In this document: positions 1-14,749 of the stretch, one piece after another
How positions within the stretch are numbered: the first letter of the stretch is position 1
Layout of the letters: every line of letters starts with the position of its first letter
The notes under the pieces: generated by a model
Database searches by the model: none
What the model saw: the letters and a program-made list of their open reading frames with translations, nothing else
What the model was told of the DNA's origin: nothing
Translations under genes and position numbers: made by a program
Origin: an uncultured virus (IMG/VR IMGVR_UViG_3300025009_000076)
Taxonomy: Duplodnaviria > Heunggongvirae > Uroviricota > Caudoviricetes
Reading direction: 5' to 3' (one strand)
IMG/VR virus record: IMGVR_UViG_3300025009_000076
Coordinates: 58,298-78,297 of that record
Length of the DNA stretch: 20,000 nt

Positions 1-267
1 TATTTTAGGTTTATTAGATTCAATTCAACGCAAAATAAGGAAGTACACTTCGTAACCTACGATCACACGATTGAGCAAAATTTAATGGCCTTATTAATGG
101 CGAAAGAAAGAATTAATGAGTATATCAAAACATTAGATTTTCAAGACCAAGAGGAAATTTATGAGGAATTTGACGTAGATTTGGGCATACTCGACGCACT
201 AATAGAAAAGGGAGAAGATGAGAATGGACATGTAAAGTTGACATGGGGAGAACAAAAGATAGTATAA
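1..267 (+). CDS. 5'-truncated CDS; C-terminus of a probable SNF2-like/SF2 helicase-domain protein
   Basis: Frame +1 is open from base 1, upstream of the listed ATG at 85: YFRFIRFNSTQNKEVHFVTYDHTIEQNLMALLMAKERIN... This resembles the SNF2 motif-VI tail (R..R....K.V.V...V...TIE......L..K). Followed by a terminator. Confidence 0.5.
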   Translation, partial: YFRFIRFNSTQNKEVHFVTYDHTIEQNLMALLMAKERINEYIKTLDFQDQEEIYEEFDVDLGILDALIEKGEDENGHVKLTWGEQKIV

Positions 268-272
268 GGCAT

Positions 273-312
273 AGAGGAAATGAACTAAAATGGTTTGTTT
301 CCTCTCTTTGTT
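273..312 (+). terminator. Rho-independent terminator
   Basis: AGAGGAAATGAACT (273-286) pairs with GGTTTGTTTCCTCT (292-305), including G-U pairs, followed by CTTTGTT; lies right after the stop at 267. Confidence 0.75.
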
Positions 313-346
313 CCCTATTATAAAGTAAAAAATAATTATTTATCTA

Positions 347-375
347 TTGCAATTTGTTTAGTTTTCATATAAAAT
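347..375 (+). promoter_or_regulatory. sigmaA-type promoter
   Basis: TTGCAA (347-352), 17 bp, TAAAAT (370-375); AT-rich UP-like tract upstream. Confidence 0.65.
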
Positions 376-412
376 AAGCAATAAGAAGCAAACTAGAAGG
401 AGCGTGTAACTT

Positions 413-769
413 ATGTCTAAATTAGCAGTACATAATGATGGTGTTTGCTCAGTGGTTGACCCATTCATAACAACTAATGAAAGATGTTTAACTTTTAAGT
501 ATGCAGGAAATGACAAAGTAGAGAAAGCAAAAAATCTTTCAAACTTATTAGATCAAAACAAAATAGATTATGTTTGCTATCTTGAAACAGGGAATTATTA
601 CCCTTGTCAATTTATCCTTAGAAGAAGTGGCAGAAAGTGGAATGATATAATGAAGTTGGTTAACAGTGTTCAATCTCCAAAATACGATTATGCTAAGATT
701 GACTTCTATATAACTGACGAAGTAAAGAAAAATGTTTTAGGTAAAATTCAAGTAATTCAATATTGTTAG
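413..769 (+). CDS. hypothetical protein, 118 aa
   Basis: ORF with SD AGAAGGAG upstream. Confidence 0.85.
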   Translation: MSKLAVHNDGVCSVVDPFITTNERCLTFKYAGNDKVEKAKNLSNLLDQNKIDYVCYLETGNYYPCQFILRRSGRKWNDIMKLVNSVQSPKYDYAKIDFYITDEVKKNVLGKIQVIQYC

Positions 770-780
770 TCCAATAAACC

Positions 781-809
781 TTACATTTCCAATACTAAAA
801 TGGTATAAT
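781..809 (+). promoter_or_regulatory. extended -10 sigmaA-type promoter
   Basis: TGgTATAAT (801-809); weak -35 TTACAT 17 bp upstream. Confidence 0.55.
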
Positions 810-845
810 ATGTATAACAAAATCAACTAGAAAGAGGGAATTAAA

Positions 846-1004
846 ATGGAAATTACTTTTGAACAACTGAAGAAAACTATGCTAAATGGATTAGAAGGAG
901 AATTTAAAAGATCAATTGAAGGGATTATTGATTGCAGTGAGAAAATCGGAAAAACAGTTCCAGAAACAATGGATAAAATTACTAAGATATTATTAGGACA
1001 ATAG
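846..1004 (+). CDS. small hypothetical protein, 52 aa (below the ORF-track cutoff)
   Basis: SD GAAAGAGGG, ATG 846, MEITFEQLKKTMLNGLEGEF...KILLGQ, TAG 1002-1004. Confidence 0.8.
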   Translation: MEITFEQLKKTMLNGLEGEFKRSIEGIIDCSEKIGKTVPETMDKITKILLGQ

Positions 1005-1015
1005 GTTGATTGAAG

Positions 1016-1054
1016 GTTACACACCAATAATTCTATAACAAATTGGCGTGTGAC
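1016..1054 (+). ncRNA. AUAACA-loop intergenic hairpin A
   Basis: GTTACAC-A-CCAAT (1016-1028) / ATTGG-C-GTGTGAC (1042-1054); loop carries ATAACA (1035-1040). Confidence 0.55.
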
Positions 1055-1089
1055 ATTGAACCAAAATATTGTAGAAAGAAGGAATTATA

Positions 1090-1443
1090 ATGAATTTATC
1101 AGAAATTACTCAAGATGCTTTTCAGATAATCAAAGATTTTAAACATGGTCATGGTCGTTATTCTTTGATTGTATCAAGTGAGTCAAAATATGGAGATTTT
1201 TCAATTGAATATCGAATGTTAAATAATGAAATTAATCAAATTTTGGTATCTGAGAGAATAGCACCTAATCATAGTTCTAAATTCGTGGTTACTCCAAATA
1301 ATTTCCGTACTATCACAGAACAAGGATTCGAAGCAGACAAATTCTTTGATAAAATCATAAAGGAAATGAATTTTGATGCTGTAGAGGTTCGTTGTTTTCC
1401 AGCCGATATGGAAGAAATATATTGTCAAGAATTTAATATCTAG
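1090..1443 (+). CDS. hypothetical protein, 117 aa
   Basis: ORF with SD AGAAAGAAGGA. Confidence 0.85.
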   Translation: MNLSEITQDAFQIIKDFKHGHGRYSLIVSSESKYGDFSIEYRMLNNEINQILVSERIAPNHSSKFVVTPNNFRTITEQGFEADKFFDKIIKEMNFDAVEVRCFPADMEEIYCQEFNI

Positions 1444-1500
1444 GTTGAAATCTGAGGTATTAGTATAACAATAACGATATGATCCCTCGACTTGAGTCTA
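1441..1500 (+). ncRNA. AUAACA-loop intergenic hairpin B (imperfect)
   Basis: TAGGT/GTCTA and GAGG (1454-1457)/CCTC (1485-1488) enclose ATAACAATAACG (1465-1476). Confidence 0.4.
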
Positions 1501-1528
1501 TAAATTAATTAGAAAGAGGGAATATATT

Positions 1529-1792
1529 ATGGGTATGATTAAAGAAAATGCAATGGAATTAAAGGCTAAAATCGAGAACCGTCACACCTTCGAACCAATT
1601 AATTTAAAATGTAATGGCGGTACGTTCTATGGAAGAGGTTGCCTTAATTATGTAGATTCTGGTGATAATGTAAATGGAATTTGGTGGTTTTCTAATGGTA
1701 GTGTAGGTGGTAGTTTTGAGGCCAGTGAAGAATTTGTGCTAACCACTATCGGAATTAATTACCAAGAAATTAAGGAGTATTTTGAAGGATAA
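1529..1792 (+). CDS. hypothetical protein, 87 aa
   Basis: ORF with SD GAAAGAGGG. Confidence 0.85.
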   Translation: MGMIKENAMELKAKIENRHTFEPINLKCNGGTFYGRGCLNYVDSGDNVNGIWWFSNGSVGGSFEASEEFVLTTIGINYQEIKEYFEG

Positions 1793-1818
1793 ATCAATTA
1801 AGAAAGAAGGAATTATTT

Positions 1819-2004
1819 ATGTCTGAAATTTCAATTTGGCAATTAAACAGAACTGATAATCAAGGCAATATCATTTCAGGTTATCAAGACATTTCCAAAA
1901 ACGTAACACGCGAACAGGCAATAACAGATTATCTTTACTACTTGGAGACCTCAGAAGGGATTGAAAATCCTAAGTGTGAGTGCATTGAAATTGATTGGGA
2001 ATAA
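1819..2004 (+). CDS. acidic hypothetical protein, 61 aa
   Basis: ORF with SD AGAAAGAAGGA. Confidence 0.8.
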   Translation: MSEISIWQLNRTDNQGNIISGYQDISKNVTREQAITDYLYYLETSEGIENPKCECIEIDWE

Positions 2005-2024
2005 ATTAATTGCATATGGAGAAT

Positions 2025-2074
2025 AGGCAATAACAATAGTACCATAACAGAACCGTTATAACAGGTTGTTGCCT
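2025..2074 (+). ncRNA. AUAACAG-loop intergenic hairpin C
   Basis: AGGCAATAAC (2025-2034) / GTTGTTGCCT (2065-2074); loop has ATAACAG twice (2044, 2058). Confidence 0.6.
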
Positions 2075-2117
2075 TCCTTTCGAGGTAAAGTTGACTAAAT
2101 ATGAAGGAGTGGAAATT

Positions 2118-2279
2118 ATGGAGAAAATTGACTCTATTAATATTCATTGTAGATGGTTTGATAGCAATACAGAAAGGGAGCGTATTCAAAGATTAATACT
2201 CAAAGGTAAAGTAGAAGGGGAAATAATCCAACATAACGAAACTGGAGAAGATTATTGGGGATGGTGGAAAAGATCCTAG
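2118..2279 (+). CDS. small hypothetical protein, 53 aa
   Basis: Start moved to ATG 2118, downstream of SD AAGGAGTG. Confidence 0.75.
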   Translation: MEKIDSINIHCRWFDSNTERERIQRLILKGKVEGEIIQHNETGEDYWGWWKRS

Positions 2280-2313
2280 TAAACAATAATTTTAAATGAA
2301 AAGGAGAAAAATT

Positions 2314-2505
2314 ATGAAAAACTATTTAGTAGAATTAATACTTGAACCGAGACTACCACAAGGAAAATATATTGGGCGTAGGTATATAACTATTAAATTA
2401 CCTGCTGATAATGAAATTGACGCAGGTAATTTTGCAAAAGAATCAATAGAAGTGTTATTGATTTCTAATGTATTGGTTATAGTAAATAAAGTATTGGAAA
2501 GTTAA
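2314..2505 (+). CDS. hypothetical protein, 63 aa
   Basis: Start moved to ATG 2314, downstream of SD AAAGGAG. Confidence 0.8.
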   Translation: MKNYLVELILEPRLPQGKYIGRRYITIKLPADNEIDAGNFAKESIEVLLISNVLVIVNKVLES

Positions 2506-2526
2506 TGTCTAGGGGCATTTAAAGCC

Positions 2527-2595
2527 CTTCTGAGCGTCAATAATGCTATAACAGTCATATATATCCATAACAGCAGAGTAAGGGACGTTCAGAAG
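2527..2595 (+). ncRNA. AUAACAG-loop intergenic hairpin D
   Basis: CTTCTGAGCGTC (2527-2538) / GACGTTCAGAAG (2584-2595), one G-U pair; ATAACAG at 2548 and 2567 inside. Confidence 0.65.
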
Positions 2596-2636
2596 AGTTC
2601 TGAAGACTCTAAAAATAAATTGTTGGAGGTTATTTT

Positions 2637-2975
2637 ATGAAAATATTGCAATTTGATTATCTTCAGGCAGAATATGATGGAGAAGTGCTAAAAGATTTTC
2701 TTATCGAACAGTTACCACGCTTTATAAATTGTGAACAAATGCAAACATACATAAAATCATCCGATGGATTTTGGCAAGATGTTAGAAATGAAATAACAAA
2801 GCAAAAAAGAGTTAAAAGGTTCAGTGAATTAGAAGATTATAAATGGATATTAGATTACCTTAATTTTTTAGCTGACAGAGATTTAGCAAAGGCAATAAAC
2901 AAAGGATTGAACACAAGAAATAAAAAGTATGCGGATCTTGAAAAATTCTTTATTAAATATTCAAAGGCAGCATGA
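2637..2975 (+). CDS. hypothetical protein, 112 aa
   Basis: ORF with SD GGAGGT; ends -KAA. Confidence 0.85.
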   Translation: MKILQFDYLQAEYDGEVLKDFLIEQLPRFINCEQMQTYIKSSDGFWQDVRNEITKQKRVKRFSELEDYKWILDYLNFLADRDLAKAINKGLNTRNKKYADLEKFFIKYSKAA

Positions 2976-3015
2976 ATGTACCATTTGCTCAGGTTAACAA
3001 AAGGAGGAATAACAA

Positions 3016-3222
3016 TTGATTATTAATATTGATCCTTATCAAAATACCTTTTATTCTCGTAAAATCAATAATAATCTATACAGACATGAGGGCAGACAGA
3101 ATACAATTGAATTTGTGATTGATAGTAAAACTCCAAAGACTCAAGAAGAAATTCTCGATTTTTTAGAATCAAAGTCAATAGATTATCTATTAAATAGAGA
3201 AGGAACTATCATAGATATTTAA
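3016..3222 (+). CDS. hypothetical protein, 68 aa
   Basis: TTG start with SD AAAGGAGG. Confidence 0.8.
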   Translation: MIINIDPYQNTFYSRKINNNLYRHEGRQNTIEFVIDSKTPKTQEEILDFLESKSIDYLLNREGTIIDI

Positions 3223-3234
3223 AGAGTTTATGCT

Positions 3235-3293
3235 CTTTATCTTAAATCTATCATAACAGAAGCCCTATATAGGTTGATGGATTTAAGATAAAG
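3235..3293 (+). ncRNA. AUAACAG-loop intergenic hairpin E (19-bp stem)
   Basis: CTTTATCTTAAATCTATCA (3235-3253) / TGATGGATTTAAGATAAAG (3275-3293), one G-U pair; ATAACAG (3253-3259) at the stem-loop boundary. Confidence 0.75.
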
Positions 3294-3344
3294 GATATAA
3301 ATCTAATCATTATATCCTAAAATAAAATCAAAGGAGGTAACAAA

Positions 3345-3452
3345 ATGAGCAAATTAAAATTACTCCAAGAATTCAAAAACATTTGCGATACTCATTCTAT
3401 TCCATTCACTTTTAAGTCATTTGACATGTTTCTTACTCATATTTCTAAATAA
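3345..3452 (+). CDS. small protein, 35 aa (below the ORF-track cutoff)
   Basis: Perfect SD AAAGGAGGT; MSKLKLLQEFKNICDTHSIPFTFKSFDMFLTHISK. Confidence 0.75.
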   Translation: MSKLKLLQEFKNICDTHSIPFTFKSFDMFLTHISK

Positions 3453-3512
3453 TCTTACATATTCTATATCAACTATAAACCAAAAATAAAATTATTGAAA
3501 GAAGGTAATCAA

Positions 3513-3803
3513 ATGCAAAAACCTAAAAATATCAAAAACTTAACCCATTCTGCTTCAAAACTTAATATCTTATACTTAGGCAAAGAAATTGTTTACACAG
3601 GCACAGGACACTCCTTAAGACCTTATCGTGGAGAAATCATTAACATTGCTTATTACTCAGACCTTGAACCTGTTCCATATGCAGAAATCAAGTTAAAGAT
3701 ATGGAACAGCCGGACAGTAACTAAAATTCTTCCATTATCTGATGTTGTTTTGGTATCTTCTTTGAAGAAAACTAAAACTAAGAAATCTAAGATAGCAGCA
3801 TAA
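3513..3803 (+). CDS. basic hypothetical protein, 96 aa, possible SH3-like beta-barrel
   Basis: Start moved to ATG 3513 after AAGAAGGT; Lys-rich tail ending KSKIAA. Confidence 0.8.
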   Translation: MQKPKNIKNLTHSASKLNILYLGKEIVYTGTGHSLRPYRGEIINIAYYSDLEPVPYAEIKLKIWNSRTVTKILPLSDVVLVSSLKKTKTKKSKIAA

Positions 3804-3806
3804 TTC

Positions 3807-3894
3807 AATATCTTTTCTATGGACACTGTAAAGCGTAAAATAATTATAACAATTGATTCCCATACGTTGTACAGTGTAATTCTTAAAAGGTATT
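3807..3894 (+). ncRNA. AUAACA-loop intergenic hairpin F (long, interrupted)
   Basis: AATATCTTTT/AAAAGGTATT, ACACTGTA (3823-3830)/TACAGTGT (3870-3877) and AGCGTA/TACGTT; apical ATAACA at 3846-3851. Confidence 0.7.
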
Positions 3895-3959
3895 AGTTAA
3901 ACTCAATGCTAATATCTCAACTATTGTATAACAAAATCAAAAGGAGGACAGGAGATATC

Positions 3960-4289
3960 ATGTCAAAATTATCTAATGTAGAAATCATTGCAATTGAAGC
4001 ATCTAAAAAAGAATATATTTATAATGGTGAGAATATTTTTACTTTTGCTCAGTGGGAAAAGAGAGGATTCGGAGTTAAGAATGGGCAAAAAGCATTTATC
4101 AAGACTAGATTAATGAGTCAGGGAGAAAATCCAAGATCGATCCCAGTATCGCTTTATACCATCGAACAGGTAAAATATAACGAAGACTTATGGAATGGCA
4201 GACCTCGCAAACCACGACAAATAAAAGATGAAATTGGTTATTATCTTGTAAACAAGCAACGTACTCAGAGGGAAGTTATTATGGTATAA
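3960..4289 (+). CDS. ArdC-like ssDNA-binding-domain protein (ArdC N-terminal/DUF1738-like), 109 aa
   Basis: TFAQWEKRGFGVKNGQKA matches the TF.QW...G..V.KG.K motif of the ArdC N-terminal domain; start moved to ATG 3960 after AGGAG. Confidence 0.65.
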   Translation: MSKLSNVEIIAIEASKKEYIYNGENIFTFAQWEKRGFGVKNGQKAFIKTRLMSQGENPRSIPVSLYTIEQVKYNEDLWNGRPRKPRQIKDEIGYYLVNKQRTQREVIMV

Positions 4290-4330
4290 TCTTGTAAATG
4301 TCATAACAGCCATAACACGGACGTTCGAGA
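4290..4330 (+). ncRNA. AUAACAG-loop intergenic hairpin G
   Basis: TCTTG..AATGTC / GACGTT.CGAGA; loop ATAACAGCCATAACACG. The 3' arm is similar in sequence to hairpin D. Confidence 0.55.
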
Positions 4331-4369
4331 GGTTCAGAAGATATTTTTAAATTATTAGGAGGAATTATT

Positions 4370-4621
4370 ATGCAAAGTGGTTTACAGTCTAAAAATGAGT
4401 ATATTCTATATCGTTCTATGTATAACAATGAACTTCACAATGCTATAATGGATAAGGATGTTCAAGCGATTGAAATATTATTAGATGGATTAACAAAAGC
4501 ACATTTGAAGAATTATGATTTTAGCCTATATGATTCAAATACTTTTATTGATATTGATTATGTTTACAATGAGCATGTAAAACAAATTGAAGAATTGGAG
4601 GCATATTGTCGTGGTTTATAA
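4370..4621 (+). CDS. hypothetical protein, 83 aa
   Basis: ORF with SD AGGAGG. Confidence 0.85.
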   Translation: MQSGLQSKNEYILYRSMYNNELHNAIMDKDVQAIEILLDGLTKAHLKNYDFSLYDSNTFIDIDYVYNEHVKQIEELEAYCRGL

Positions 4622-4743
4622 ATTCAAGCAAGCAATTGTAAATGGTGATCAATATATTTATGGATTTGGATTTTATTTGAGTATTGTGAAGTGGTATAAG
4701 TAATCCCATTAATTCATTAATAACAAGAAAGGTTGTGTAGTTG

Positions 4744-4902
4744 ATGGAATTAGGTGATAAAGTTAAAATCAGAAATGGTATGCTTAGAGGAGTAATTGTC
4801 GAGATACAAAAATCCATGAAAGGTAGAAAGATATTTGTAGTTCAAATTACTAAAAATGTTAGTAATGGATATTGGGAAGAGGAATTAGAGAAAATTATTT
4901 GA
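4744..4902 (+). CDS. small KOW/SH3-like protein, 52 aa (below the ORF-track cutoff)
   Basis: SD AGAAAGG; MELGDKVKIRNGMLRGVIVEIQKSMKGRKIFVVQITKNVSNGYWEEELEKII. The GD.V.I..G...G.I.EI pattern is KOW-like. Confidence 0.7.
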   Translation: MELGDKVKIRNGMLRGVIVEIQKSMKGRKIFVVQITKNVSNGYWEEELEKII

Positions 4903-4942
4903 CCCAACGAAACTATTAATTTATACCATATTATGGATTTAG

Positions 4943-4973
4943 AAACCCTTATAACAGTAGTGTTTCAGGGTTT
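4943..4973 (+). ncRNA. AUAACAG-loop intergenic hairpin H
   Basis: AAACCCT (4943-4949) / AGGGTTT (4967-4973); ATAACAG at 4951-4957. Confidence 0.55.
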
Positions 4974-5010
4974 GACGAATTTAAAAATTAGAAGAAAGAA
5001 GGAAATTATT

Positions 5011-5322
5011 ATGAAAAAGTCAGATTTGAAAACGGGAATGAGATTTAAAACTAGAGATGGCGAATTATATTTGGTTTTAAAAGATTGTGAAACATATTTA
5101 GGAAATCACACTTGTTTTGTAAATTTTAATGGAAGAGGATTTAATTTTGATGATAATTATACCGAGGAATTAACACTTGTACAACTAAATGAAGTAGAAG
5201 AAGATGGTTATGGCGATGTCATGGAAATTTATACTACGGAAAGAGGATTTGTTAATGGTTGCACATTAGATCCTAAAGATTTAAAGTTAATTTGGAAAAG
5301 AAATGAAGCTGAATCTAAGTAG
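5011..5322 (+). CDS. phage-type hypothetical protein, 103 aa
   Basis: Start moved to ATG 5011 after AAGAAGGA; begins MKKSDLKTGMRFKTRDG and ends LKLIWKR. Confidence 0.85.
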   Translation: MKKSDLKTGMRFKTRDGELYLVLKDCETYLGNHTCFVNFNGRGFNFDDNYTEELTLVQLNEVEEDGYGDVMEIYTTERGFVNGCTLDPKDLKLIWKRNEAESK

Positions 5323-5372
5323 CACGAAAAGCAAGTTTAATTGATTTAAAACAAGAAAGGAAATGATAAATT

Positions 5373-5717
5373 ATGAAAACTATTTTAAAAGAAGGAACAG
5401 ATTTTAAATGGATTAAGGTAAAAAATAGGCATGGTTATGAATTCCCTTGTCCTAAGTTATTAGATGGGAATAAATTACTACGTATAAGTGATCCATCTTT
5501 TAATTCAGTGGTTTATCACAGAGATAATGAAAATACACTAAAATTGGTATTGATTAAAAATGGACAATATGAAGTCAATGGAAGACTATCAAACTTTTGG
5601 TATTGGTACGAATTAGATGAAAATCTTCAAATAACAGAAGAGAAAAATGGTTATGGTAATTTCTTCGAACCTTTAAAACCTTTTGATGTTAAAATTAAAT
5701 ATGAAATAAGTCAATGA
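5373..5717 (+). CDS. hypothetical protein, 114 aa
   Basis: ORF with SD GAAAGGA. Confidence 0.85.
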   Translation: MKTILKEGTDFKWIKVKNRHGYEFPCPKLLDGNKLLRISDPSFNSVVYHRDNENTLKLVLIKNGQYEVNGRLSNFWYWYELDENLQITEEKNGYGNFFEPLKPFDVKIKYEISQ

Positions 5718-5768
5718 AAGCAAAACTTAAATGTATTCTAAATCAAAAAGAGAAAGAGGTAATTAATT

Positions 5769-6074
5769 ATGGAAAATATTAATAAAGCATTAGTAGATAT
5801 TAAAAGCCAAACTGGTCTGGAAATTAAGAACGAAAGCAGAGAAGGTATTCCCTTATTCAATGTTCCAAACAGACAACCATTTAAATTTAATTTAGAAATT
5901 AGTTATAATTCAATTAGAGGACAAGGAAGTTTTGAACTGCATTTTCCATCTCTATATGTCAAAGCAAATGACGTAAGAGAATTTTCTAACCAAGTAAATT
6001 TACTAACTTTCTTGATTGAGGATTTAAACAAAGCACTTAAAAAAGATTTCAGTAATGAATGGGTATTGCAATAA
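5769..6074 (+). CDS. hypothetical protein, 101 aa
   Basis: ORF with SD AAAGAGGT. Confidence 0.85.
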   Translation: MENINKALVDIKSQTGLEIKNESREGIPLFNVPNRQPFKFNLEISYNSIRGQGSFELHFPSLYVKANDVREFSNQVNLLTFLIEDLNKALKKDFSNEWVLQ

Positions 6075-6075
6075 C

Positions 6076-6150
6076 ACTGGTCTGAGCCAGTATAAAACGC
6101 CTTAAGCTCAGAGCGTTAGCAGGGTTGATAATAATCCTGCTAGGTGGTAT
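6076..6150 (+). ncRNA. pistol self-cleaving ribozyme
   Basis: P1 ACTGG (6076-80)/CCAGT (6087-91). Its loop TCTGAG forms a pseudoknot with CTCAGA (6107-12). ATAAA linker; P2 GCC (6099-6101)/GGT (6146-48); conserved TTAAG and GCGT segments; P3 TAGCAGGGTT (6117-26)/AATCCTGCTA (6133-42); GGT junction. Same order and spacing as the pistol consensus; predicted cut G6144/U6145. Confidence 0.9.
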
Positions 6151-6172
6151 CAAAAAAGAAAGGATGATTAAA

Positions 6173-6412
6173 ATGTATTATAAAAACGAGTGGAAAATGA
6201 TTTTATTAACAGGAGCAGGGAAGGAGGAACAAGAAGAACAAATAGTTGAAGGAGAATTAGTTCAAGAAGGAAATGATATTTTATTTAAAAGCAGAGAACT
6301 TAATATTGTCTATGATAAAAATATATGGCATAAACTTAATGAAGTATCTAATGAATGGAATAAGTTTATTTATCTATATGTTGAAAAGGATAATTATAGA
6401 CAGTTCCATTAA
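6173..6412 (+). CDS. hypothetical protein, 79 aa
   Basis: Start moved to ATG 6173 after GAAAGGATGA; the listed TTG at 6125 lies inside the ribozyme. Confidence 0.8.
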   Translation: MYYKNEWKMILLTGAGKEEQEEQIVEGELVQEGNDILFKSRELNIVYDKNIWHKLNEVSNEWNKFIYLYVEKDNYRQFH

Positions 6413-6443
6413 AAAGTAAAACTTATGGGAAAAATAATTTTAT

Positions 6444-6472
6444 TTGATTTTGTTCTTAGAATACATTACAAT
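6444..6472 (+). promoter_or_regulatory. possible sigmaA promoter for the HNH gene, overlapped by an inverted repeat
   Basis: TTGATT (6444-49), 17 bp, TACAAT (6467-72); inverted repeat TAGAATACATTA (6457-68)/TGGTGTATTCTA (6476-87). Confidence 0.45.
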
Positions 6473-6579
6473 ATTTGGTGTATTCTATAGAGTGAGAACT
6501 CTAAAATTATAAAGGAGGGTAGAGAGGAAAACTTAATATAGTTAAATAATAATAAATAAAAGAGGAGAGATATTAGAAA

Positions 6580-7479
6580 TTGGCAACAATAAAACAATTG
6601 GAAGCAATAGATAGACTAAGAAAAGAAAAGTTTGCAAGAGAACATAAAATTATAAACGGAGTTGACCATAAATTTTGTAATAAACATCACATTTATTTTC
6701 CAGAAGAAGATATATGGTTTCCATCAACATTAGAATTTTTTCATAACAGCAACAAAAATAAAACGGATGGTTTGCATCCTTGGTGTAAAAGATGTGCAAG
6801 CGACAAATCTAGCATTAATTATCTAGAAAATAGAGAAAGAAGTGATTTAGCTCATAAAAAATATGAAGGGTCTGAAAAACATAAAGCATGGTCTGCTAGA
6901 AATTATCAAATGTTTAAAGATAAGCAATCACAATGGAGAAAAGATAATCCAGAAAAATGTAGGGAATATTCTAAACAACATAGAATACATGATATTACAG
7001 AGGCTGAATGGAAGAAAGAATTAGAAGTATTTAATTATGAATGTGCATATTGTGGAATCAGTGAAGAAGAAAGTATAAAAATACTAAAACAAAGACTTCA
7101 TAAAGATCATGGAGACCATCTAGGAGCAAATGATTTAAGAAATAGCATCCCTGCATGTAGAAGTTGTAATAGTAAAAAACATCAGGATGACATAGATGAT
7201 TGGTATAAGAATAGAAAATTTTATACCGAAGAAAGATATAATAAAATTATCTGGTGGCTCACAGAAGGATATAAAGATTACATAGAAGACAAACCACCGT
7301 ATAGAATAATTAGGAAACAAAATGAGGGTAGAAAAGATTTTCATTGGGAGTTATGGACTGTTGATGAAATGAGGAATATGATGGAATGTATTGATATTAA
7401 AGGTAAAAGAAAAGAAATAATAAAAGATATTGAAGGAGGTATTTTAGATGAATACTTAATGCAAGAAACGGCTAAATAA
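6580..7479 (+). CDS. HNH (beta-beta-alpha-metal) endonuclease with Zn-binding motifs, 299 aa
   Basis: CAYCG...LHKDH...NDLRNSIPACRSCNSKK (CxxC, DH, N, CxxCN). N-terminal CNKH...F....KTDGLHPWCKRC Zn-ribbon-like domain. TTG start, SD GAGGAG. Confidence 0.85.
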   Translation: MATIKQLEAIDRLRKEKFAREHKIINGVDHKFCNKHHIYFPEEDIWFPSTLEFFHNSNKNKTDGLHPWCKRCASDKSSINYLENRERSDLAHKKYEGSEKHKAWSARNYQMFKDKQSQWRKDNPEKCREYSKQHRIHDITEAEWKKELEVFNYECAYCGISEEESIKILKQRLHKDHGDHLGANDLRNSIPACRSCNSKKHQDDIDDWYKNRKFYTEERYNKIIWWLTEGYKDYIEDKPPYRIIRKQNEGRKDFHWELWTVDEMRNMMECIDIKGKRKEIIKDIEGGILDEYLMQETAK

Positions 7480-7483
7480 TAAA

Positions 7484-7846
7484 AACCTTGATCACATATA
7501 ATAATAGTAGTGGTTAAGGTTGGGTAGTTTTAAGGCATGAAAATCCATTGCCACGACTACATGGTCAGAACATTTATAACAGAACTCAATATTATTTACA
7601 TGAGATTTTCAAACGACCGAATAACGGACATTAGAGCGTTACGCAATTATGCGAAATGAGATTAAGTATTCCCCGTATTTGGTGAAAAACGTTGCTATAA
7701 CCTAACTGTACGTTATTCGTATAGTTAGAGTCCTAAGTAACAGTCTGTGACTTTAAAGACGCAGGGAGCGACTTTTAACGCTACCCAATATTGGGGAACG
7801 TCTTTAATAATTTAATAAATGCTTCGTATGTATTACAGATGAAGTA
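7484..7846 (+). ncRNA. candidate large structured ncRNA (about 360 nt), class not recognised
   Basis: Longest gene-free gap, GC-richer than its surroundings, with at least 7 consecutive helices and a long-range pairing TTCCCCGTATTTGG (7669-82)/CCAATATTGGGGAA (7785-98). Confidence 0.6.
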
Positions 7847-7873
7847 AAATAAAATCAAAGGATGTGAATAACA

Positions 7874-8014
7874 ATGACAAAAGAACAAATCAAACATTCT
7901 TGTTGGAATTGCTTGCTCCTTAACCTAGATAAAGCAGAATACAAATCCTGTATCAAAGGCCACAAACTAAAATTAATCTTCAATGTAAACGAATGCTCAG
8001 ATTGGGATGGTTAA
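7874..8014 (+). CDS. small Cys-containing protein, 46 aa (below the ORF-track cutoff)
   Basis: SD AAAGGATGTG; MTKEQIKHSCWNCLLLNLDKAEYKSCIKGHKLKLIFNVNECSDWDG (CxxC...C...C). Confidence 0.7.
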   Translation: MTKEQIKHSCWNCLLLNLDKAEYKSCIKGHKLKLIFNVNECSDWDG

Positions 8015-8054
8015 TATCGATACCCAAAATATGGTATAACAGTCGCACCATCCT
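8004..8054 (+). ncRNA. AUAACAG-bulge hairpin J, possibly also a terminator
   Basis: GGGATGGT (8004-11)/ACCATCCT (8047-54), with inner CGA/TCG and TACC/GGTA; ATAACAG (8036-42) bulged on the 3' side; T-rich downstream. Confidence 0.55.
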
Positions 8055-8091
8055 TTATCTAACTTTATTTTTATATTTATACTAAACTCTA

Positions 8092-8120
8092 TTGTAATCT
8101 TGTTCCAATATTGATATACT
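8092..8120 (+). promoter_or_regulatory. sigmaA-type promoter (extended -10)
   Basis: TTGTAA (8092-97), 17 bp, TATACT (8115-20) preceded by TGn. Confidence 0.7.
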
Positions 8121-8160
8121 AGTATTAATAAAGAAATAAAAATAAAAAGGAAGTGATAAA

Positions 8161-8364
8161 ATGGAAGTTGAAGAGAGAATTAAAAACAGTATCAACATTG
8201 AGTTCAGAGATTTTAATGGAAACAAACATCTTTATTACAATGAAGAAACGCCGTCTGAACAAATTAACTTTATTGGTTTTAGTATTGGAAACTTCATAAA
8301 ATCATTAGGTTGGCCTAATGACACTGTAAAAGAAATATTGAAAAGTATTGATGAAAATAGTTAA
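8161..8364 (+). CDS. hypothetical protein, 67 aa (monocistronic unit)
   Basis: SD AAAGGAAGTGA; flanked by its own promoter and terminator. Confidence 0.8.
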   Translation: MEVEERIKNSINIEFRDFNGNKHLYYNEETPSEQINFIGFSIGNFIKSLGWPNDTVKEILKSIDENS

Positions 8365-8378
8365 GGGATTGGATTTTT

Positions 8379-8403
8379 AGGGGAAGCAATTCCCTTTCTT
8401 CTT
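8379..8403 (+). terminator. Rho-independent terminator
   Basis: AGGGGAA-GCAA-TTCCCTT hairpin with a GNRA loop, followed by TCTTCTT. Confidence 0.7.
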
Positions 8404-8466
8404 AAAAATTTGTATATTGCATAAATTAGATCATAAATAAATTTTAAATAAAAGGAGAAAATACAT

Positions 8467-8712
8467 ATGAAAATCGGAACAAACGTCACAATCAAATTAA
8501 ATCTAATTCCTAATCAAATCTACGGAGGAGCAATATTTGTGCCTGAAATGGAAGAATTTTGTGGTAGAAGTGCAGTTATCACAGAGATATTATTTCCTGT
8601 TGTAAATGAAGGTGAAAGTAAATTTAGTTATGGATTAGGTATTGATATGAACAAGGAATTTGAATTTACTGATGAGATGTTGGATGTTGTGGAATTGGGT
8701 AAAGTAGCATAG
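8467..8712 (+). CDS. hypothetical protein, 81 aa, SH3-like
   Basis: SD AAAGGAG; MKIGTNVTIK...EMEEFCGRSAVITEI...FTDEML pattern. Confidence 0.85.
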   Translation: MKIGTNVTIKLNLIPNQIYGGAIFVPEMEEFCGRSAVITEILFPVVNEGESKFSYGLGIDMNKEFEFTDEMLDVVELGKVA

Positions 8713-8741
8713 AGATTAGTTATTTGAAGGAGGAATATATA

Positions 8742-8927
8742 ATGAAAAAAGTTGATCCAATGACAGCTTTAAATGCAATATTCTTTGAAAACAAAAGAGT
8801 ATACGTAGAACACAATGTAAACTGTCTTAATTACTCAAGAGAATTTAAATTAGGTAAAAATATTGGAATAATGTCTGAGATACCAGTAACGGTTTTAATT
8901 CATGGTAATTGGTTTATTGTAGGATAA
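8742..8927 (+). CDS. hypothetical protein, 61 aa
   Basis: Start moved to ATG 8742 after AAGGAGG. Confidence 0.8.
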   Translation: MKKVDPMTALNAIFFENKRVYVEHNVNCLNYSREFKLGKNIGIMSEIPVTVLIHGNWFIVG

Positions 8928-8979
8928 TTTAAAAGGCAGATTTCCTAGTATTGTAAGAAAGAAAGAAAGGATGATTAAA

Positions 8980-9204
8980 ATGGAAAATTACACTCCTGAA
9001 AAACACGGAATAGTAACAGCAATTAGACTTTTCTATGAAAATGACAGACAACCAATGGCAGAATTAGCTTTTTGTTTTGGTGGTACGGATATTATCGAAT
9101 GGACAAATGTTAGTCAAAGAGAAAAATATAGTAAAGGAATTAACGGTTATACTTTTTTCTTTGATGAAAGACAGCAGAATAGTTTTGAAAGTTTTAAAAA
9201 ATAA
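8980..9204 (+). CDS. hypothetical protein, 74 aa
   Basis: Start moved to ATG 8980 after GAAAGGATGA. Confidence 0.8.
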   Translation: MENYTPEKHGIVTAIRLFYENDRQPMAELAFCFGGTDIIEWTNVSQREKYSKGINGYTFFFDERQQNSFESFKK

Positions 9205-9230
9205 TTAAAATTTGAAAGGATGGATTAAAA

Positions 9231-9533
9231 ATGAAAATTTATAAATTATATAGAATTGATGGATTTTCAGGTGATTCATATTATTGTATTCCTAATGAAA
9301 TAACATTAGGTTATTATGTTTCAAGAGAAAAAGCAGAAGCACATCCAGAATATCAACTATGGCTTAAAAAAGAGCAAGAGCAAAATAAGCTATATGAGAA
9401 GATTAAAGGACTATCAGATGAACAAATTGAAAATACATTATCGTCTGAAGAATTAGATATACTCAACGAAAATGACAGTTATCATAGTGAACCAAATTAT
9501 GTTGGAATAATAGAGATTGATGTTATAGATTAG
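9231..9533 (+). CDS. hypothetical protein, 100 aa
   Basis: ORF with SD GAAAGGA. Confidence 0.85.
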   Translation: MKIYKLYRIDGFSGDSYYCIPNEITLGYYVSREKAEAHPEYQLWLKKEQEQNKLYEKIKGLSDEQIENTLSSEELDILNENDSYHSEPNYVGIIEIDVID

Positions 9534-9592
9534 AATTACTTTAAAATATAACTTTTATCTGAAATTATTATAAACAAGAAAGGATGATTAAA

Positions 9593-10000
9593 ATGTCAGT
9601 ATTAATTTGTAGTACAATTTATGGTGGTTGTGGGTATGTTGGCAGTAATAGAGATTTTTCAAGTAGTGATGATGGAGATTTTGTATTTTGCCCTGCTTGT
9701 GGCGAAGACCATGCTTTTCAAATTCTCAAACAAAATATTAATGGATTGACAAATGAAAATAATTATGAAAAAGCAAAAGAATTAATGATAGGTTATTATA
9801 AAGAAACTCCAAGAAAAATATTTAATACTGCTCTAGAAGTTTCGGTTGCCGGATACAACGAAATACTTTATGAAAATGAGTTTTATCAAATAGTTGGTGG
9901 AAGAGATACTACTTTATTTGTAAGAGGAGAAGGTAGTAGAAGTGAACCAAGTGAAATTGATGTTAGTAAAGTAGAACAGTTTATAAGTTCAATACGTTAA
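9593..10000 (+). CDS. Zn-ribbon-containing hypothetical protein, 135 aa
   Basis: CSTIYGGCG...CPACG; start moved to ATG 9593 after GAAAGGATGA. Confidence 0.8.
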   Translation: MSVLICSTIYGGCGYVGSNRDFSSSDDGDFVFCPACGEDHAFQILKQNINGLTNENNYEKAKELMIGYYKETPRKIFNTALEVSVAGYNEILYENEFYQIVGGRDTTLFVRGEGSRSEPSEIDVSKVEQFISSIR

Positions 10001-10017
10001 AAGAAGGAAGATTAAAT

Positions 10018-10194
10018 ATGAAAAACATTGATGAACTAAGTGAAGAATATCGCAGAGCATGTAAACAAGAAATGATGAATGATTTAGTCAAAGAGTTTAA
10101 TCTACTATTAGTTAATGAAAATGTTTCTGGAGAAAAGATAAGTTTGACTTTTCAAATGTTAATGAATACTATTAAAATTTCTCAAATGAGTTAA
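10018..10194 (+). CDS. small hypothetical protein, 58 aa (below the ORF-track cutoff)
   Basis: SD AAGAAGGA; MKNIDELSEEYRRACKQEMMNDLVKEF...ISQMS. Confidence 0.75.
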   Translation: MKNIDELSEEYRRACKQEMMNDLVKEFNLLLVNENVSGEKISLTFQMLMNTIKISQMS

Positions 10195-10230
10195 ATTATA
10201 ATTTTAAAAAAGAAAGGATTGATAATCTAA

Positions 10231-10488
10231 ATGTATAAAGAAAATGATAAAGTTATGGTCACATGTAAAGAGATTAGTAGTAAAGATGAGTTGGCCTATA
10301 TTGCTTCAAGAACTCCCTTTGGTGCATATGAAGTGACATTACTAATGGATCATAAGCCTAGTAGTGGATTTGATCCTGTTAGAGTTTTTAGCATAGAACA
10401 AATGCGCTTTGCTACTAAGCAGGAAGTTACTGATAATGTAAGAGAGTGGGAAGTGAGACATAATTATAAGTTAGGAGGAATGATTTAA
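10231..10488 (+). CDS. hypothetical protein, 85 aa, SH3-like
   Basis: ORF with SD GAAAGGA. Confidence 0.8.
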   Translation: MYKENDKVMVTCKEISSKDELAYIASRTPFGAYEVTLLMDHKPSSGFDPVRVFSIEQMRFATKQEVTDNVREWEVRHNYKLGGMI

Positions 10489-10489
10489 G

Positions 10490-10711
10490 ATGTCAAAATG
10501 TAAATACTGTGTGATTTTACCATTAAGAATAGGTAAAGCAAAAGAAGTTCTAGGGGATAGGGTTTTTCATTGTATTGTCAATAATGACAAAGTAGAAATT
10601 TTAGATGATAATTCAGAAAGAAAAATTCATGAGATGGAATTAAATGAAGTTAAGTTTGTGGATTATACTGATGTCTACTATAAAGATGATGTAACTATGT
10701 GGTTAAGATAG
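10490..10711 (+). CDS. hypothetical protein, 73 aa
   Basis: SD AGGAGG inside the upstream gene's end; translationally coupled. Confidence 0.8.
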   Translation: MSKCKYCVILPLRIGKAKEVLGDRVFHCIVNNDKVEILDDNSERKIHEMELNEVKFVDYTDVYYKDDVTMWLR

Positions 10712-10763
10712 GCATTAAAATCACTCTTTGGTCGGATTACAAATTAAGAAAGAAGGAATAAAA

Positions 10764-11090
10764 ATGAACAACAAAAATTTTAAATATCTATATATCATAT
10801 CTTCTTATGCTGGTGATAGAGGAAACGTTGAGCAAGGTATATATAAAATGAATTTAAATACTGAAGAGATGAGAAAAGCATGTGATGAAGATTTTCAAAA
10901 AAATTATCCTGAAGTAATAGTTGGTATGCATTTGTGTTCATCGATAGTTATTGAAATAAAAGATATCGGAATTGATGCGTTCATTAAAAATGGAGATGAA
11001 TGCTGTAACAAATACCAACAAGAGCAAAAGGATATTGAAAAACGTGAATTAGCCGAACTTGAAAGATTACAAAAGAAATACAACCAATAA
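10764..11090 (+). CDS. hypothetical protein, 108 aa
   Basis: Start moved to ATG 10764 after AAGAAGGA; helical C-terminus ELAELERLQKKY. Confidence 0.85.
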   Translation: MNNKNFKYLYIISSYAGDRGNVEQGIYKMNLNTEEMRKACDEDFQKNYPEVIVGMHLCSSIVIEIKDIGIDAFIKNGDECCNKYQQEQKDIEKRELAELERLQKKYNQ

Positions 11091-11100
11091 TAGAGAACTA

Positions 11101-11159
11101 TATTTCCCCACTAAATCCATAAAAATAAATGGATATTTGTGAGGGAAATATTTATTTTT
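11101..11159 (+). terminator. Rho-independent terminator
   Basis: TATTTCCC/GGGAAATA and ATCCAT/ATGGAT stems, followed by TTTATTTTT. Confidence 0.7.
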
Positions 11160-11162
11160 ATA

Positions 11163-11191
11163 TTGTATTACATACAGCACTATGATATAAT
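11163..11191 (+). promoter_or_regulatory. strong sigmaA-type promoter (extended -10)
   Basis: TTGTAT (11163-68), 17 bp, TATAAT (11186-91) preceded by TGn. Confidence 0.75.
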
Positions 11192-11223
11192 TATATCAAT
11201 CAATACAAAAGGAGTTGTTACAT

Positions 11224-11409
11224 ATGAGTGAAAATCCATATCAAGCAAATGGTTATGAAAGCCGTAAACATTATTTGCAATGTATGTCTGAAGACTACGC
11301 AGTACCTTTAGAAATTGTTTATTCCCTTGCAGATATGCTTGGGCCTAGCGAAGATTTTGATGGCTTGGTCAATGCTTTAGAAGATGCTGAAGGAGAATTT
11401 GAAGAGTAG
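11224..11409 (+). CDS. small, highly acidic protein, 61 aa
   Basis: Start ATG 11224 after AAAGGAG; 15 D/E versus 2 K/R. Confidence 0.85.
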   Translation: MSENPYQANGYESRKHYLQCMSEDYAVPLEIVYSLADMLGPSEDFDGLVNALEDAEGEFEE

Positions 11410-11422
11410 GTAAGCTAAAACA

Positions 11423-11447
11423 TAAGGGAGTTTAACAAACTCCCTTA
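11423..11447 (+). terminator. perfect 11-bp hairpin (terminator or stabiliser)
   Basis: TAAGGGAGTTT-AAC-AAACTCCCTTA; only a weak U-tract follows. Confidence 0.55.
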
Positions 11448-11479
11448 ATATTAAAATAAATTTAAAGGAGTCGATCTAA

Positions 11480-12829
11480 ATGTCAAACTTTAATTTCAAA
11501 AATCTATTCTCTGAAACAGTAATACATAACGATGAATATGTCTCAAACAAACATTTTTTAATCAAAAAATCTCTTCTAAAGAAATCTCAACTTGAATTCA
11601 TAAACCAATTTCCTCTCGACACTCAATTAATTAATTCCTTATCTCAGACTCTTAAAAATGAATCCAGAAAACCAATAATTACTGAATTTATCCCTCAATC
11701 AATCCTAGAAGATACCGAATATAACATACTCATAATGGAGTTAGACAGAGGATATAAGCCTTATAATGAGTCTACATCTAAAATATATCCTGCAATCAAA
11801 GAAGAATATTATAACTTCATTCAATCTCTCAATTGTAAAATATGCATTGTTAACAATTATCAAGTAAATACTTTAGCAATTTATAATAATCAAAATGAAT
11901 TTGTTGGAATATTATTACCAATCAAAGTAAAAGATTCAAACATTACAAATGCTCAGAATTACAATGATTATCTCAACAATCTAAAATCAGAACAAGAATC
12001 TAAGAAATTATCAAAATTAAACTCCAAGAAATGTTTATATATCAAAGATAATAAGGCAGTAGTTAGAAATAAAGAATTAACCTGCATTGCTGATATTATC
12101 AATGATGAGGCATATAAAAACCTTTACATTGAGAAAACTACTAAACAAGATGCAGGAGTTTATATTGATCTTGGAATTGTTCATGTTTATATCAGATCAA
12201 TTACAGGAGATGCTTCTCATGAAGATATTAAATATTATTTAAACAATGTCACCAATTATAATTTAGAAATGGCATTGTCAAATATTAATGAACGTAAAAA
12301 CAACAATCAATTCATCAATGTTGCAGATATTAAACTCATTGAACTATCTGGAGCCATTAAACAAGAAGTGCAAGGACTAATTGATTATCGCCAAGAGTGG
12401 TGTGACAGAAAAACTAAAGAAGAACAAGAAAAGAAATCTAAGCAAGAACAGGAGGATAGGGAGTATACTAATTCTAAAAACAAGATTGTTAATGAATTAG
12501 TATCTCAAGCAGAACAAACAATCATTAATAATCAGAAAGTTAATAACAAAGAGATCACTGTTTATAAGTCAAGATATGAGAGTAATGATACCAGTTTAAT
12601 TCTTCATATGATGAAATTATATGATATCAAAGTGCCATTAAAAACTCAGGGATGGATTAATAAAGTGTTAGCAAGTATATTTTATGATGTAGAAGAGGGC
12701 AATGTTAGTTATTCATATTATAAATCTTCTGCTAATAGCAATGTGTTTAGGAAATATTTGAATGAGTTTGTTGGTAAGATTCAGGATAAGTATGATTATA
12801 AATCAAGAAAGAAGGAATCGTTATGTTAA
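11480..12829 (+). CDS. hypothetical protein, 449 aa
   Basis: Long ORF with SD AAAGGAG; no family recognised. Confidence 0.9.
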   Translation: MSNFNFKNLFSETVIHNDEYVSNKHFLIKKSLLKKSQLEFINQFPLDTQLINSLSQTLKNESRKPIITEFIPQSILEDTEYNILIMELDRGYKPYNESTSKIYPAIKEEYYNFIQSLNCKICIVNNYQVNTLAIYNNQNEFVGILLPIKVKDSNITNAQNYNDYLNNLKSEQESKKLSKLNSKKCLYIKDNKAVVRNKELTCIADIINDEAYKNLYIEKTTKQDAGVYIDLGIVHVYIRSITGDASHEDIKYYLNNVTNYNLEMALSNINERKNNNQFINVADIKLIELSGAIKQEVQGLIDYRQEWCDRKTKEEQEKKSKQEQEDREYTNSKNKIVNELVSQAEQTIINNQKVNNKEITVYKSRYESNDTSLILHMMKLYDIKVPLKTQGWINKVLASIFYDVEEGNVSYSYYKSSANSNVFRKYLNEFVGKIQDKYDYKSRKKESLC

Positions 12830-13020
12830 ATTTACAAGAGGTTCTTATTCATCTAGTTAAAAATTCAATTACTTATAAGGACATAACAAATGAAATTGAA
12901 GTCAGAGAATTTTCAAAAGGTATGAAAAAGGTTGATGCCAGATTATCAAAATATACTAAATCTGAACTCCATGAAATTGCATACGCTACAAATACACATG
13001 CGTTTAATATGCGTTATTGA
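12823..13020 (+). CDS. hypothetical protein, 65 aa
   Basis: SD AAGAAGGA; overlaps the upstream stop. Confidence 0.8.
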   Translation: MLNLQEVLIHLVKNSITYKDITNEIEVREFSKGMKKVDARLSKYTKSELHEIAYATNTHAFNMRY

Positions 13021-13088
13021 TCCTAAGAAGATTTAAGCCACTTCTGACAGGTCATCATAAGCAAATTAAAATTTAGGAGGAATAAAAA

Positions 13089-13259
13089 ATGAATAGAGAA
13101 CAAGAAATACTTGAACAATTAACAAAGTTGACAGATGAATTTAATATGTTGTCATGTGGAGTTAACAGTGGGAAAGGTTGTGACAATTGCCAGAAGAAAA
13201 AAATATGTGATGCTATTACAGAATTAGGTGATGCTATTATGGATTTTAAATATAAATAA
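13089..13259 (+). CDS. small Cys-rich protein, 56 aa (below the ORF-track cutoff)
   Basis: SD AGGAGG; MNREQEILEQL...SCGVNSGKGCDNCQKKKIC...FKYK. Confidence 0.75.
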   Translation: MNREQEILEQLTKLTDEFNMLSCGVNSGKGCDNCQKKKICDAITELGDAIMDFKYK

Positions 13260-13290
13260 GACTGGTATTTAATTGAGAAAGGAGTTATAC

Positions 13291-13380
13291 ATGACAAAGA
13301 AAGAAAATAGTGATTGCTTAATTATAGCTATTGGTGCGGTATCTTTATTTTTTATTATTGGAATATTAATATACTATTAA
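13291..13380 (+). CDS. 29-aa single-pass membrane peptide (below the ORF-track cutoff)
   Basis: SD GAAAGGAG; MTKKENSDCLIIAIGAVSLFFIIGILIYY. Confidence 0.65.
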   Translation: MTKKENSDCLIIAIGAVSLFFIIGILIYY

Positions 13381-13438
13381 ATCTTTAAAACTAGTGTTTT
13401 AAATGCTTAAAATTTAAGAATGAAAGAAGGAAAATAAA

Positions 13439-14446: not shown

Positions 14447-14473
14447 ATAAAATTTGAAAGGATTGATTAAATA

Positions 14474-14749
14474 ATGAAAATTCAAGACTTCATTAACAGA
14501 GGAATAAGGGTTATAAATGATATGAATGAACTTAGAATCCCAAGCAGAGCCTCAATTCCATTTTCTAATGGATGGGTAGCAAGTATTGTAACAACAGATA
14601 ATGGTTATTCGGTAGCAGTATGTGATTATAATGGTTATTTCAATTGGGGTATTTTAAACAGTTATGGAGCAGAGCGAGGAAAATTTCAATGCAAAACAGA
14701 AGATGAAGTTTGTAATGCGTTAGCAATTATAGAATCTTTACCAAATTAA
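14474..14749 (+). CDS. hypothetical protein, 91 aa
   Basis: ORF with SD GAAAGGA. Confidence 0.85.
   Translation: MKIQDFINRGIRVINDMNELRIPSRASIPFSNGWVASIVTTDNGYSVAVCDYNGYFNWGILNSYGAERGKFQCKTEDEVCNALAIIESLPN

Follow-up and report, generated by a model that had tools for sequence, protein, structure and literature searches.

A pistol self-cleaving ribozyme at a phage gene junction, apparently constant together with its leader while the neighbouring genes change

The role of pistol ribozymes, like that of most small ribozymes of bacteria and phages, remains an open question, and the element described here raises it in a concrete form: what would a self-cleaving RNA do when it fills the 98-nt gap between two small co-directional genes of an uncultured phage? 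The locus lies on the plus strand of a 20,000-nt stretch of DNA (hereafter the window), which forms the end of a 78-kb IMG/VR record (estimated 47% complete, 29% G+C) present in groundwater and soil metagenomes. Positions 6076–6149 of the window are a genuine pistol of the known class in an ordinary placement. The reading that we favour, with a probability of about 0.78, is that an active pistol, set in a run of small, same-strand and mostly orphan genes, cuts read-through RNA between G6144 and U6145.

Class membership could be settled with the Rfam model. The cmscan of the window returned a full-length match to Pistol (RF02679) at 6076–6149 (+), with a score of 60.1 bits against a gathering cut-off of 34.5 and an E-value of 6.1e-9, the latter being 5.6e-12 in an RF02679 search of the record alone. 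All model positions (1–68 of 68) are covered by the match, whose score stands 25 bits over the cut-off. The initial annotation, drawn from the sequence alone, had named the element a pistol and proposed this model search as a check, and the significant, full-model match bears it out. At the gathering score no second Rfam family appeared beside Pistol in the whole 20-kb window, and when the cmscan of the window was relaxed to E ≤ 5 the sole extra was a chance miRNA match, with no other ribozyme or non-coding RNA. Likewise, the remaining 58 kb of the record and 106 kb of a sister contig gave no Rfam match at gathering score, Pistol being the sole Rfam family over the ~184 kb of both contigs, and a search of 14 control genomes with RF02679 was also devoid of matches.

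The fold can be followed along the plus strand letter by letter. P1 is a hairpin at 6076–6091 whose strands ACUGG (6076–6080) and CCAGU (6087–6091) form 5 bp closed by a 6-nt loop, with 5/5 pairs kept in 4/4 relatives aligned. This loop, UCUGAG (6081–6086), is the exact complement of CUCAGA (6107–6112), which gives a 6-bp pseudoknot paired in 23 of 24 cells across the four relatives, one pair being broken in the relative G002. The linker AUAAAA (6092–6097) corresponds to the conserved AUAAA(A) and is 1 nt short of the Rfam consensus. It is followed by the 5′ strand of P2, CGCC (6098–6101), and, by direct reading, by UUAAG (6102–6106) and GCGU (6113–6116), on either side of the second pseudoknot strand. 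The P3 stem-loop occupies 6116–6143 (6116–6127 against 6132–6143) and allows 8–12 bp to be drawn, 8 of them in the CM annotation and 11 in the MFE fold, with a loop that varies among relatives. P2 is completed by GGUA (6146–6149) and consists of two G-C pairs, one G·U pair and an outer C·A mismatch, which is flagged in the CM alignment and is found, never paired, in 4/4 aligned relatives. Between the end of P3 at 6143 and the start of P2 at 6146, the CM alignment places the predicted cut, G6144/U6145; in the excerpt of Harris et al. 2015 (PMC4604425) the P3–P2 junction is described as a strictly conserved length of 2 nt, usually GU, that contains the cut site. The upper-case single-stranded letters of the Rfam consensus (AUAAA, UUA, GC, GAGCGU and GGU), taken as a proxy for the 10 highly conserved nucleotides of the class, are all matched, with one linker position absent or shifted. 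Folding without pseudoknots yields the P3 stem as well as the pseudoknot helix (z = −2.9 relative to shuffled sequences). Direct reading of the sequence recovered every element that had been listed for this pistol, each in its proposed position, including a 10-bp P3, which falls inside the range of 8–12 drawable pairs, and a GU cut junction, which is typical of the class and is put at G6144–U6145 by the CM alignment. P3 was also considered as a terminator and ruled out, because a U tract is missing 3′ of the stem.

Other viral pistols provide a scale for this copy. Survey loci (at least 80, with 1.2-kb flanks) were picked from IMG/VR by matching the pistol core at the DNA level, which makes them a convenience sample; the records were then checked with the Rfam model, which gave, among the matches listed, 57 matches in 39 of 49 records and, in a second batch, 18 matches in 17 of 22 records. 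The 75 viral pistols validated among these listed matches were all over the cut-off (39.8–77.4 bits), and the 60.1 bits of the window's copy are mid-range. For gene geometry we kept the 64 of the 75 listed pistols whose loci extended 150 nt or more beyond the ribozyme on both sides, the other 11 being left out. Among these 64 listed matches the GU junction was present in 55, an SD-led start lay 20–50 nt past the cut in 21, and the ribozyme started within ±10 nt of a co-directional stop in 42 (ORFs of at least 45 aa) and from −2 to +4 nt of one in 31. After clustering of the listed matches at 88% identity the corresponding figures were 38 of 56 and 27 of 56, to be compared with 6.8% and 1.9% for random positions in the same loci, a control that is blind to the exclusion of intergenic elements from genes. 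As for the fold, P2 had three of four canonical pairs in 26 and four of four in 25 of the 60 parsed pistols among the matches listed, and the short linker class of the window was found in 7 of them. Since three canonical pairs are the commonest state of P2 among the matches listed, the short P2 is no warning sign, which eases the concern, voiced with the initial annotation, that a 3-bp P2 could impair activity. The geometry of the window's pistol is thus typical of its class. On stop-codon abutment or constant-cassette behaviour no statement was found in the literature searched, outside which the original discovery paper lies.

Some phage contigs carry several pistols, which stand at successive gene junctions. 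Four of them (G023, G048, G019 and G026; loci L024, L053/L054, L019/L020 and L027) have 3–5 Rfam-validated copies a few hundred bases apart, and in G023 a near-identical SD leader, AACCAAGGGAGAGAACATG, follows three of its pistols. In contigs of the G023 type, pistol plus leader would act as a repeated junction module.

At the junction under study, the upstream ORF (5769–6074, +; 101 aa) ends in a TAA stop at 6072–6074 and a single base, C6075, separates this stop from the start of P1, so that the earlier remark that the pistol starts 2 nt after the stop holds in the sense of one intervening base. The downstream ORF (6173–6412, +; 79 aa) begins at ATG 6173, and neither flanking ORF gave a Pfam or PHROG family. 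The predicted cut is 28 nt 5′ of this ATG, which would leave the 3′ product with a leader at 6145–6172 (+; 28 nt), and 13–16 nt 5′ of the purine-rich SD GAAAGGA (6158–6164, +). The SD module of ATG 6173, GAAAGGAUGAUUAAA, is also found 5′ of the ORFs at 8980 and 9593, and a near-identical ribosome-binding module, GAAAGGATGATTAAAATG, occurs at 6155–6175, 8962–8982 and 9575–9595, the ORFs at 6173, 8980 and 9593 being unrelated. TTG 6125 was considered as the start of the downstream ORF and dropped, given that ATG 6173 has the SD module; it is further disfavoured by the starts of the relatives, which lie at the position equivalent to ATG 6173.

The window as a whole is an array of small plus-strand ORFs with strong SDs, nearly all of them orphans. 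Twenty ORFs scanned against Pfam and PHROG gave matches only to an HNH endonuclease (6580–7479), a CxxCxxCC domain protein (17905–18246) and two function-unknown PHROGs, and window 5000–8000 had no blastn match among 50,697 GenBank phage records. No terminator-like site was found on the plus strand between 305 and 8379, and a transcript reading through the junction is therefore plausible. Promoter-like hexamers were not enriched (70 found, 72.8 expected from shuffles) and, being at shuffle level, do not allow transcription units to be drawn. The HNH ORF is bordered by non-coding stretches of 167 and 394 nt, and the resulting block (6413–7873), together with ORF 6173–6412, lacks an equivalent in the syntenic relatives, in which homology is back at 7887. 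The block looks like an inserted homing-endonuclease module; a group I intron around the HNH gene was also considered and dropped, nothing credible appearing in 6380–8200 at E ≤ 10. The rest of the record encodes a YonO-type RdRP-domain protein, PhoH/PIN, ClpP and GIY-YIG endonucleases. A 551-aa ORF at 16482–18137 (−) of the record (G000, equal to L135) matches Pfam RdRP PF05183 (E 1.5e-9), the domain found in single-chain RNA polymerases of the YonO type; part of the phage genome may therefore be transcribed by the phage's own enzyme.

Comparison with relatives sets the ribozyme apart from the genes that surround it. Three further IMG/VR records (G002–G004), which are syntenic mosaics of the window's phage, have one pistol each at the syntenic junction, with scores of 53.8–55.3 bits, above the cut-off. 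In these records the pistol is an island of 88–96% identity whose flanking ORFs show no homology, those of the four records giving no blastp relation to one another (best E 0.14). G002 is 99.96% identical to the window's record over 11 kb, as far as window position 4704, beyond which only the pistol island at 6076–6157 (96%) matches before homology returns at 7887. A stricter subfamily pattern, run on IMG/VR and JGI metagenome contigs for further copies, placed the pistol plus leader, at 88–96% identity, in at least eight distinct junctions, and the 15 flanking ORFs gave no blastp pair at E ≤ 0.01. In 7 of 8 subfamily contexts P1 is preceded, at −1 to +4 nt, by a TAA stop. Likewise, 7 of 8 have a leader of 28–34 nt between the cut and the start codon; the start of L153 was called at 20 nt, which we judge to be a mis-call, taking the next ATG as the real one. 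DNA contigs from four further metagenome runs match the pistol alone, with unlike sequence on both sides. As ribozyme and leader appear constant and both neighbours variable, the role of the element would be positional and not tied to a given gene.

Within the four aligned sequences, standard pairs fill 95.4% of the pair cells and four one-sided changes keep pairing. Compensatory double changes were seen in 0 of 27 pairs, in an alignment of four close sequences that are too close to show any; covariation is therefore uninformative here, and not negative, and the shuffle control for pairing is equally uninformative at four sequences. The pattern of conservation would fit selection on the fold, of which four close sequences are no proof, and the conservation of the island could also stem from recombination at a shared junction and not from selection on catalysis. 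Two metagenome variants of the subfamily have a weaker P1 or P2. Besides, a divergent pistol in three metagenome runs resembles window 6100–6150 in its 3′ half, with P1 mismatched and letters of the AUAAA linker missing, and may represent a decaying or variant copy.

If the pistol is active, RNA polymerase would pass from ORF 5769–6074 into the ribozyme, where P1 would form first, its loop would then pair with 6107–6112 to make the pseudoknot, and P3 would form; P2 would close once 6146–6149 emerges, whereupon the 2′-OH of G6144 would attack the G6144–U6145 phosphate. The class leaves 2′,3′-cyclic phosphate and 5′-OH ends, according to the excerpt of Harris et al. 2015 (PMC4604425). The upstream message would accordingly be expected to end with its stop codon, one base and the 69-nt folded ribozyme body with a 2′,3′-cyclic phosphate on G6144, and the downstream message would begin with a 5′-OH on U6145, followed by an unstructured 28-nt leader and, 13–16 nt from the new end, the SD. 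In this way the two flanking genes would probably be uncoupled from each other in decay and translation, and any gene placed downstream would be likely to get the same short leader. Cleavage of polycistronic mRNA is the role usually suggested in print for ribozymes of bacteria and phages; for this junction we infer from the sequence that transcription reads through, that the RNA is cut in vivo and that stability or translation is affected. A search for RNA runs containing window 4000–9000 returned none.

The same part of the genome is marked by another motif, ATAACAG, which is present 12 times on the plus strand and 0 times on the minus strand of the window, with copies spanning 1921–8042 (+); 3.96 copies would be expected over both strands, and 1 of 200 shuffles reached 12. 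The 78-kb record contains 21 plus-strand and 2 minus-strand copies, all those of the plus strand being located within 19 kb (47564–66333), and another 106 kb, from the sister contig, contain 1 on the plus and 5 on the minus strand. Plus/minus counts in the relatives L133 and L134 were 16/0 and 4/0, and L132 has 14/0, with 10 of these copies in a portion that it shares with the window's record. Of the 12 copies in the window, nine are intergenic, intergenic DNA making up ~26% of bases 1–8400, and at five junctions ATAACAG occupies the loop of a clear hairpin. Examples of such hairpins, the stems of which differ in sequence from site to site, are those at 2044/2058, 2548/2567, 3253, 4951 and 8036. 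The intergenic regions harbouring these hairpins are 73–85% identical between related phages (window 2004–2099, 4273–4372 and 4896–5008 compared with L133 6294–6380, 7760–7861 and 8650–8763, the last pair at 85%), and the ORFs in between are replaced, as occurs with the pistol. An extended promoter was discarded, no flanking position being conserved in 46 instances; a phage promoter, an RNase site and a protein-binding loop are candidate roles that we leave open.

It had been suggested that junctions of the same kind are served by either the pistol or an AUAACAG-loop hairpin, the two being interchangeable RNA-processing devices, a view encouraged by an ATAACA immediately before the ribozyme. 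The letters are indeed present at 6071–6076, where they are made up of the stop codon, C and the first base of P1, but they are not conserved, being absent in 3/3 relatives. The motif itself is real, strand- and region-specific and mostly intergenic, and its place in hairpin loops at five junctions would suit such a device. However, none of the junctions in four syntenic records shows one element replacing the other, and cleavage of the ATAACAG hairpins is purely hypothetical. Moreover, 6 of 8 subfamily contexts have (AUAACA)AUAACAG/A in tandem with the pistol, 3′ of it at the same junction and between the 3′ strand of P2 and the SD; in the window and in the G002 type this place is taken by AUCAAAAAA. 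The P3 loop reads AUAACAAU in 4 of 8. The presence of ATAACAG/A next to the pistol in 6 of 8 contexts therefore indicates that the two elements are associated and not alternative, and the idea of a swap is hardly tenable. The loss of cleavage behind a preserved pistol appearance, through the three pairs of P2 and the short linker, might be read into the C·A mismatch and the G·U pair of P2, into the 1-nt linker deletion relative to the model and into the subfamily variants in which P1 or P2 is weaker still. An inactive relic is nevertheless very improbable because of the score, 25 bits over the gathering cut-off, and of the conservation of the sequence in relatives though the neighbouring DNA is replaced; in addition, the same P2 state and linker class are shared by 26 and 7, respectively, of the 60 validated pistols parsed among the matches listed.

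Another reading is that pistol and leader are kept mainly as shared DNA at which related phages recombine and swap neighbouring gene cassettes, self-cleavage being perhaps real but secondary. A conserved stretch of 80–105 nt is found between non-homologous genes in three syntenic relatives and in eight contexts overall, the ATAACAG intergenic regions are similar islands (such as L133 8650–8763 against window 4896–5008, 85%), and some phages possess 3–5 pistols at successive junctions. A recombination site has no need of a fold, yet all conserved core bases are retained, most substitutions either lie in the P3 loop or keep pairs, and the boundary of the island coincides exactly with the 5′ edge of the ribozyme; we consider this explanation possible though unlikely. 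The closeness of the stop codon raises another possibility, namely that cleavage reports whether upstream ORF 5769–6074 is translated. As P1 starts 1 nt after the stop, a terminating ribosome would cover P1 and the pseudoknot strand, and this abutment is the mode of the class (27 of 56 dereplicated pistols among the matches listed, against 1.9% of random positions) and of the subfamily (7 of 8 contexts). On the other hand, compact phage genomes are short of spacer anyway, the random control ignores the exclusion between genes and intergenic elements, and the class cuts in seconds (~10 per min in the excerpt of Harris et al. 2015, PMC4604425), probably ahead of any ribosome, which makes gating by translation improbable. 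An active pistol that cuts read-through RNA at G6144/U6145 remains our preferred reading.

Additional clues on the possible fate of the cleaved ends come from the sister contig (G001), which is 100% identical to the window over 4449–16418 (~12 kb, pistol included) and then diverges, and whose gene content is therefore ascribed to the sister contig only. AgrB, Thg1, a fusion of a Pnk-like kinase with an HD domain and two MazF/PemK-like ORFs are found on it, the RNA-end gene set being located, as listed jointly, at L140:2509–3441, L139:19153–19935, L139:17900–18583, L140:12517–13320 and L146. A metallophosphoesterase is also encoded there, the Pnk-like kinase/HD fusion matches the kinase part of TIGR04075, and a MazF/PemK-like homologue, 37% identical, occurs in the relative G004. 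The MazF/PemK-like family makes 2′,3′-cyclic-phosphate and 5′-OH ends, the same as the pistol. Judging from its predicted members, the gene set of the sister contig would be able both to make and to heal 5′-OH and cyclic-phosphate RNA ends. We might then speculate, with little expectation of being right, that the pistol and its 28–34-nt leader are a portable junction cassette and form, together with the ATAACAG elements, one phage-specific system of mRNA punctuation. In the boldest form of this proposal, the ATAACAG loops would be sites of the MazF/PemK-like endoribonuclease, whose gene is on the sister contig, and the ends so formed could be handled by the Pnk-like kinase/HD protein of that contig.

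The pistol adds no new chemistry to its class. What is new is that both neighbours vary around a ribozyme and leader that appear to be constant. Found at no fewer than eight junctions, after a stop and before an SD, with all neighbours different, this pair offers a clean natural experiment, and the natural-variation data set attached to this pistol is useful in itself. Likewise, the class-wide abutment to stop codons makes the function of pistols testable in concrete designs.

Several known systems resemble this junction in part. The hyperplastic regions of T4-type phages contain promoter-early stem-loop (PeSL) cassettes between small, rapidly exchanged genes, and, like them, the elements described here are short conserved intergenic sequences amid arrays of swapped small genes. 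Unlike the pistol, a PeSL is a promoter plus a hairpin and not a catalytic RNA. The glmS ribozyme is ligand-dependent and placed in a 5′ UTR, and its 5′-OH cleavage product is degraded by RNase J1 in Bacillus. The pistol of the window shares with glmS the predicted end chemistry of the cleavage product and probably a Firmicutes-type host; in contrast to glmS, it is a junction element, and the 5′-OH generated here may either stabilise or destabilise the downstream message. With the pistol class itself (RF02679), as outlined in the excerpt of Harris et al. 2015 (PMC4604425), which cites Weinberg et al. 2015, the window's copy has in common P1, P2, P3 and the P1-loop pseudoknot, the core letters AUAAA, UUA, GC and GAGCGU, and the 2-nt GU junction as cut site. 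It also shares an intergenic site near phage genes in an AT-rich, SD-using genome, the occurrence of pistols near phage genes in AT-rich genomes being already well known, as is their association with phages and Firmicutes, from the same excerpt (PMC4604425). There is no categorical difference from the class: the copy has a 1-nt-shorter linker and the outer P2 C·A mismatch, both of which are found in other validated pistols. Finally, that self-cleaving ribozymes of bacteria and phages may process polycistronic transcripts is put forward, as a suggestion without proof, in the excerpt of PMC6765202. Our locus resembles that proposal in that a pistol lies between co-directional genes and its cut would give two RNAs with different ends, and it goes beyond what that excerpt (PMC6765202) proposes in that ribozyme and leader appear fixed here while both neighbouring genes change.
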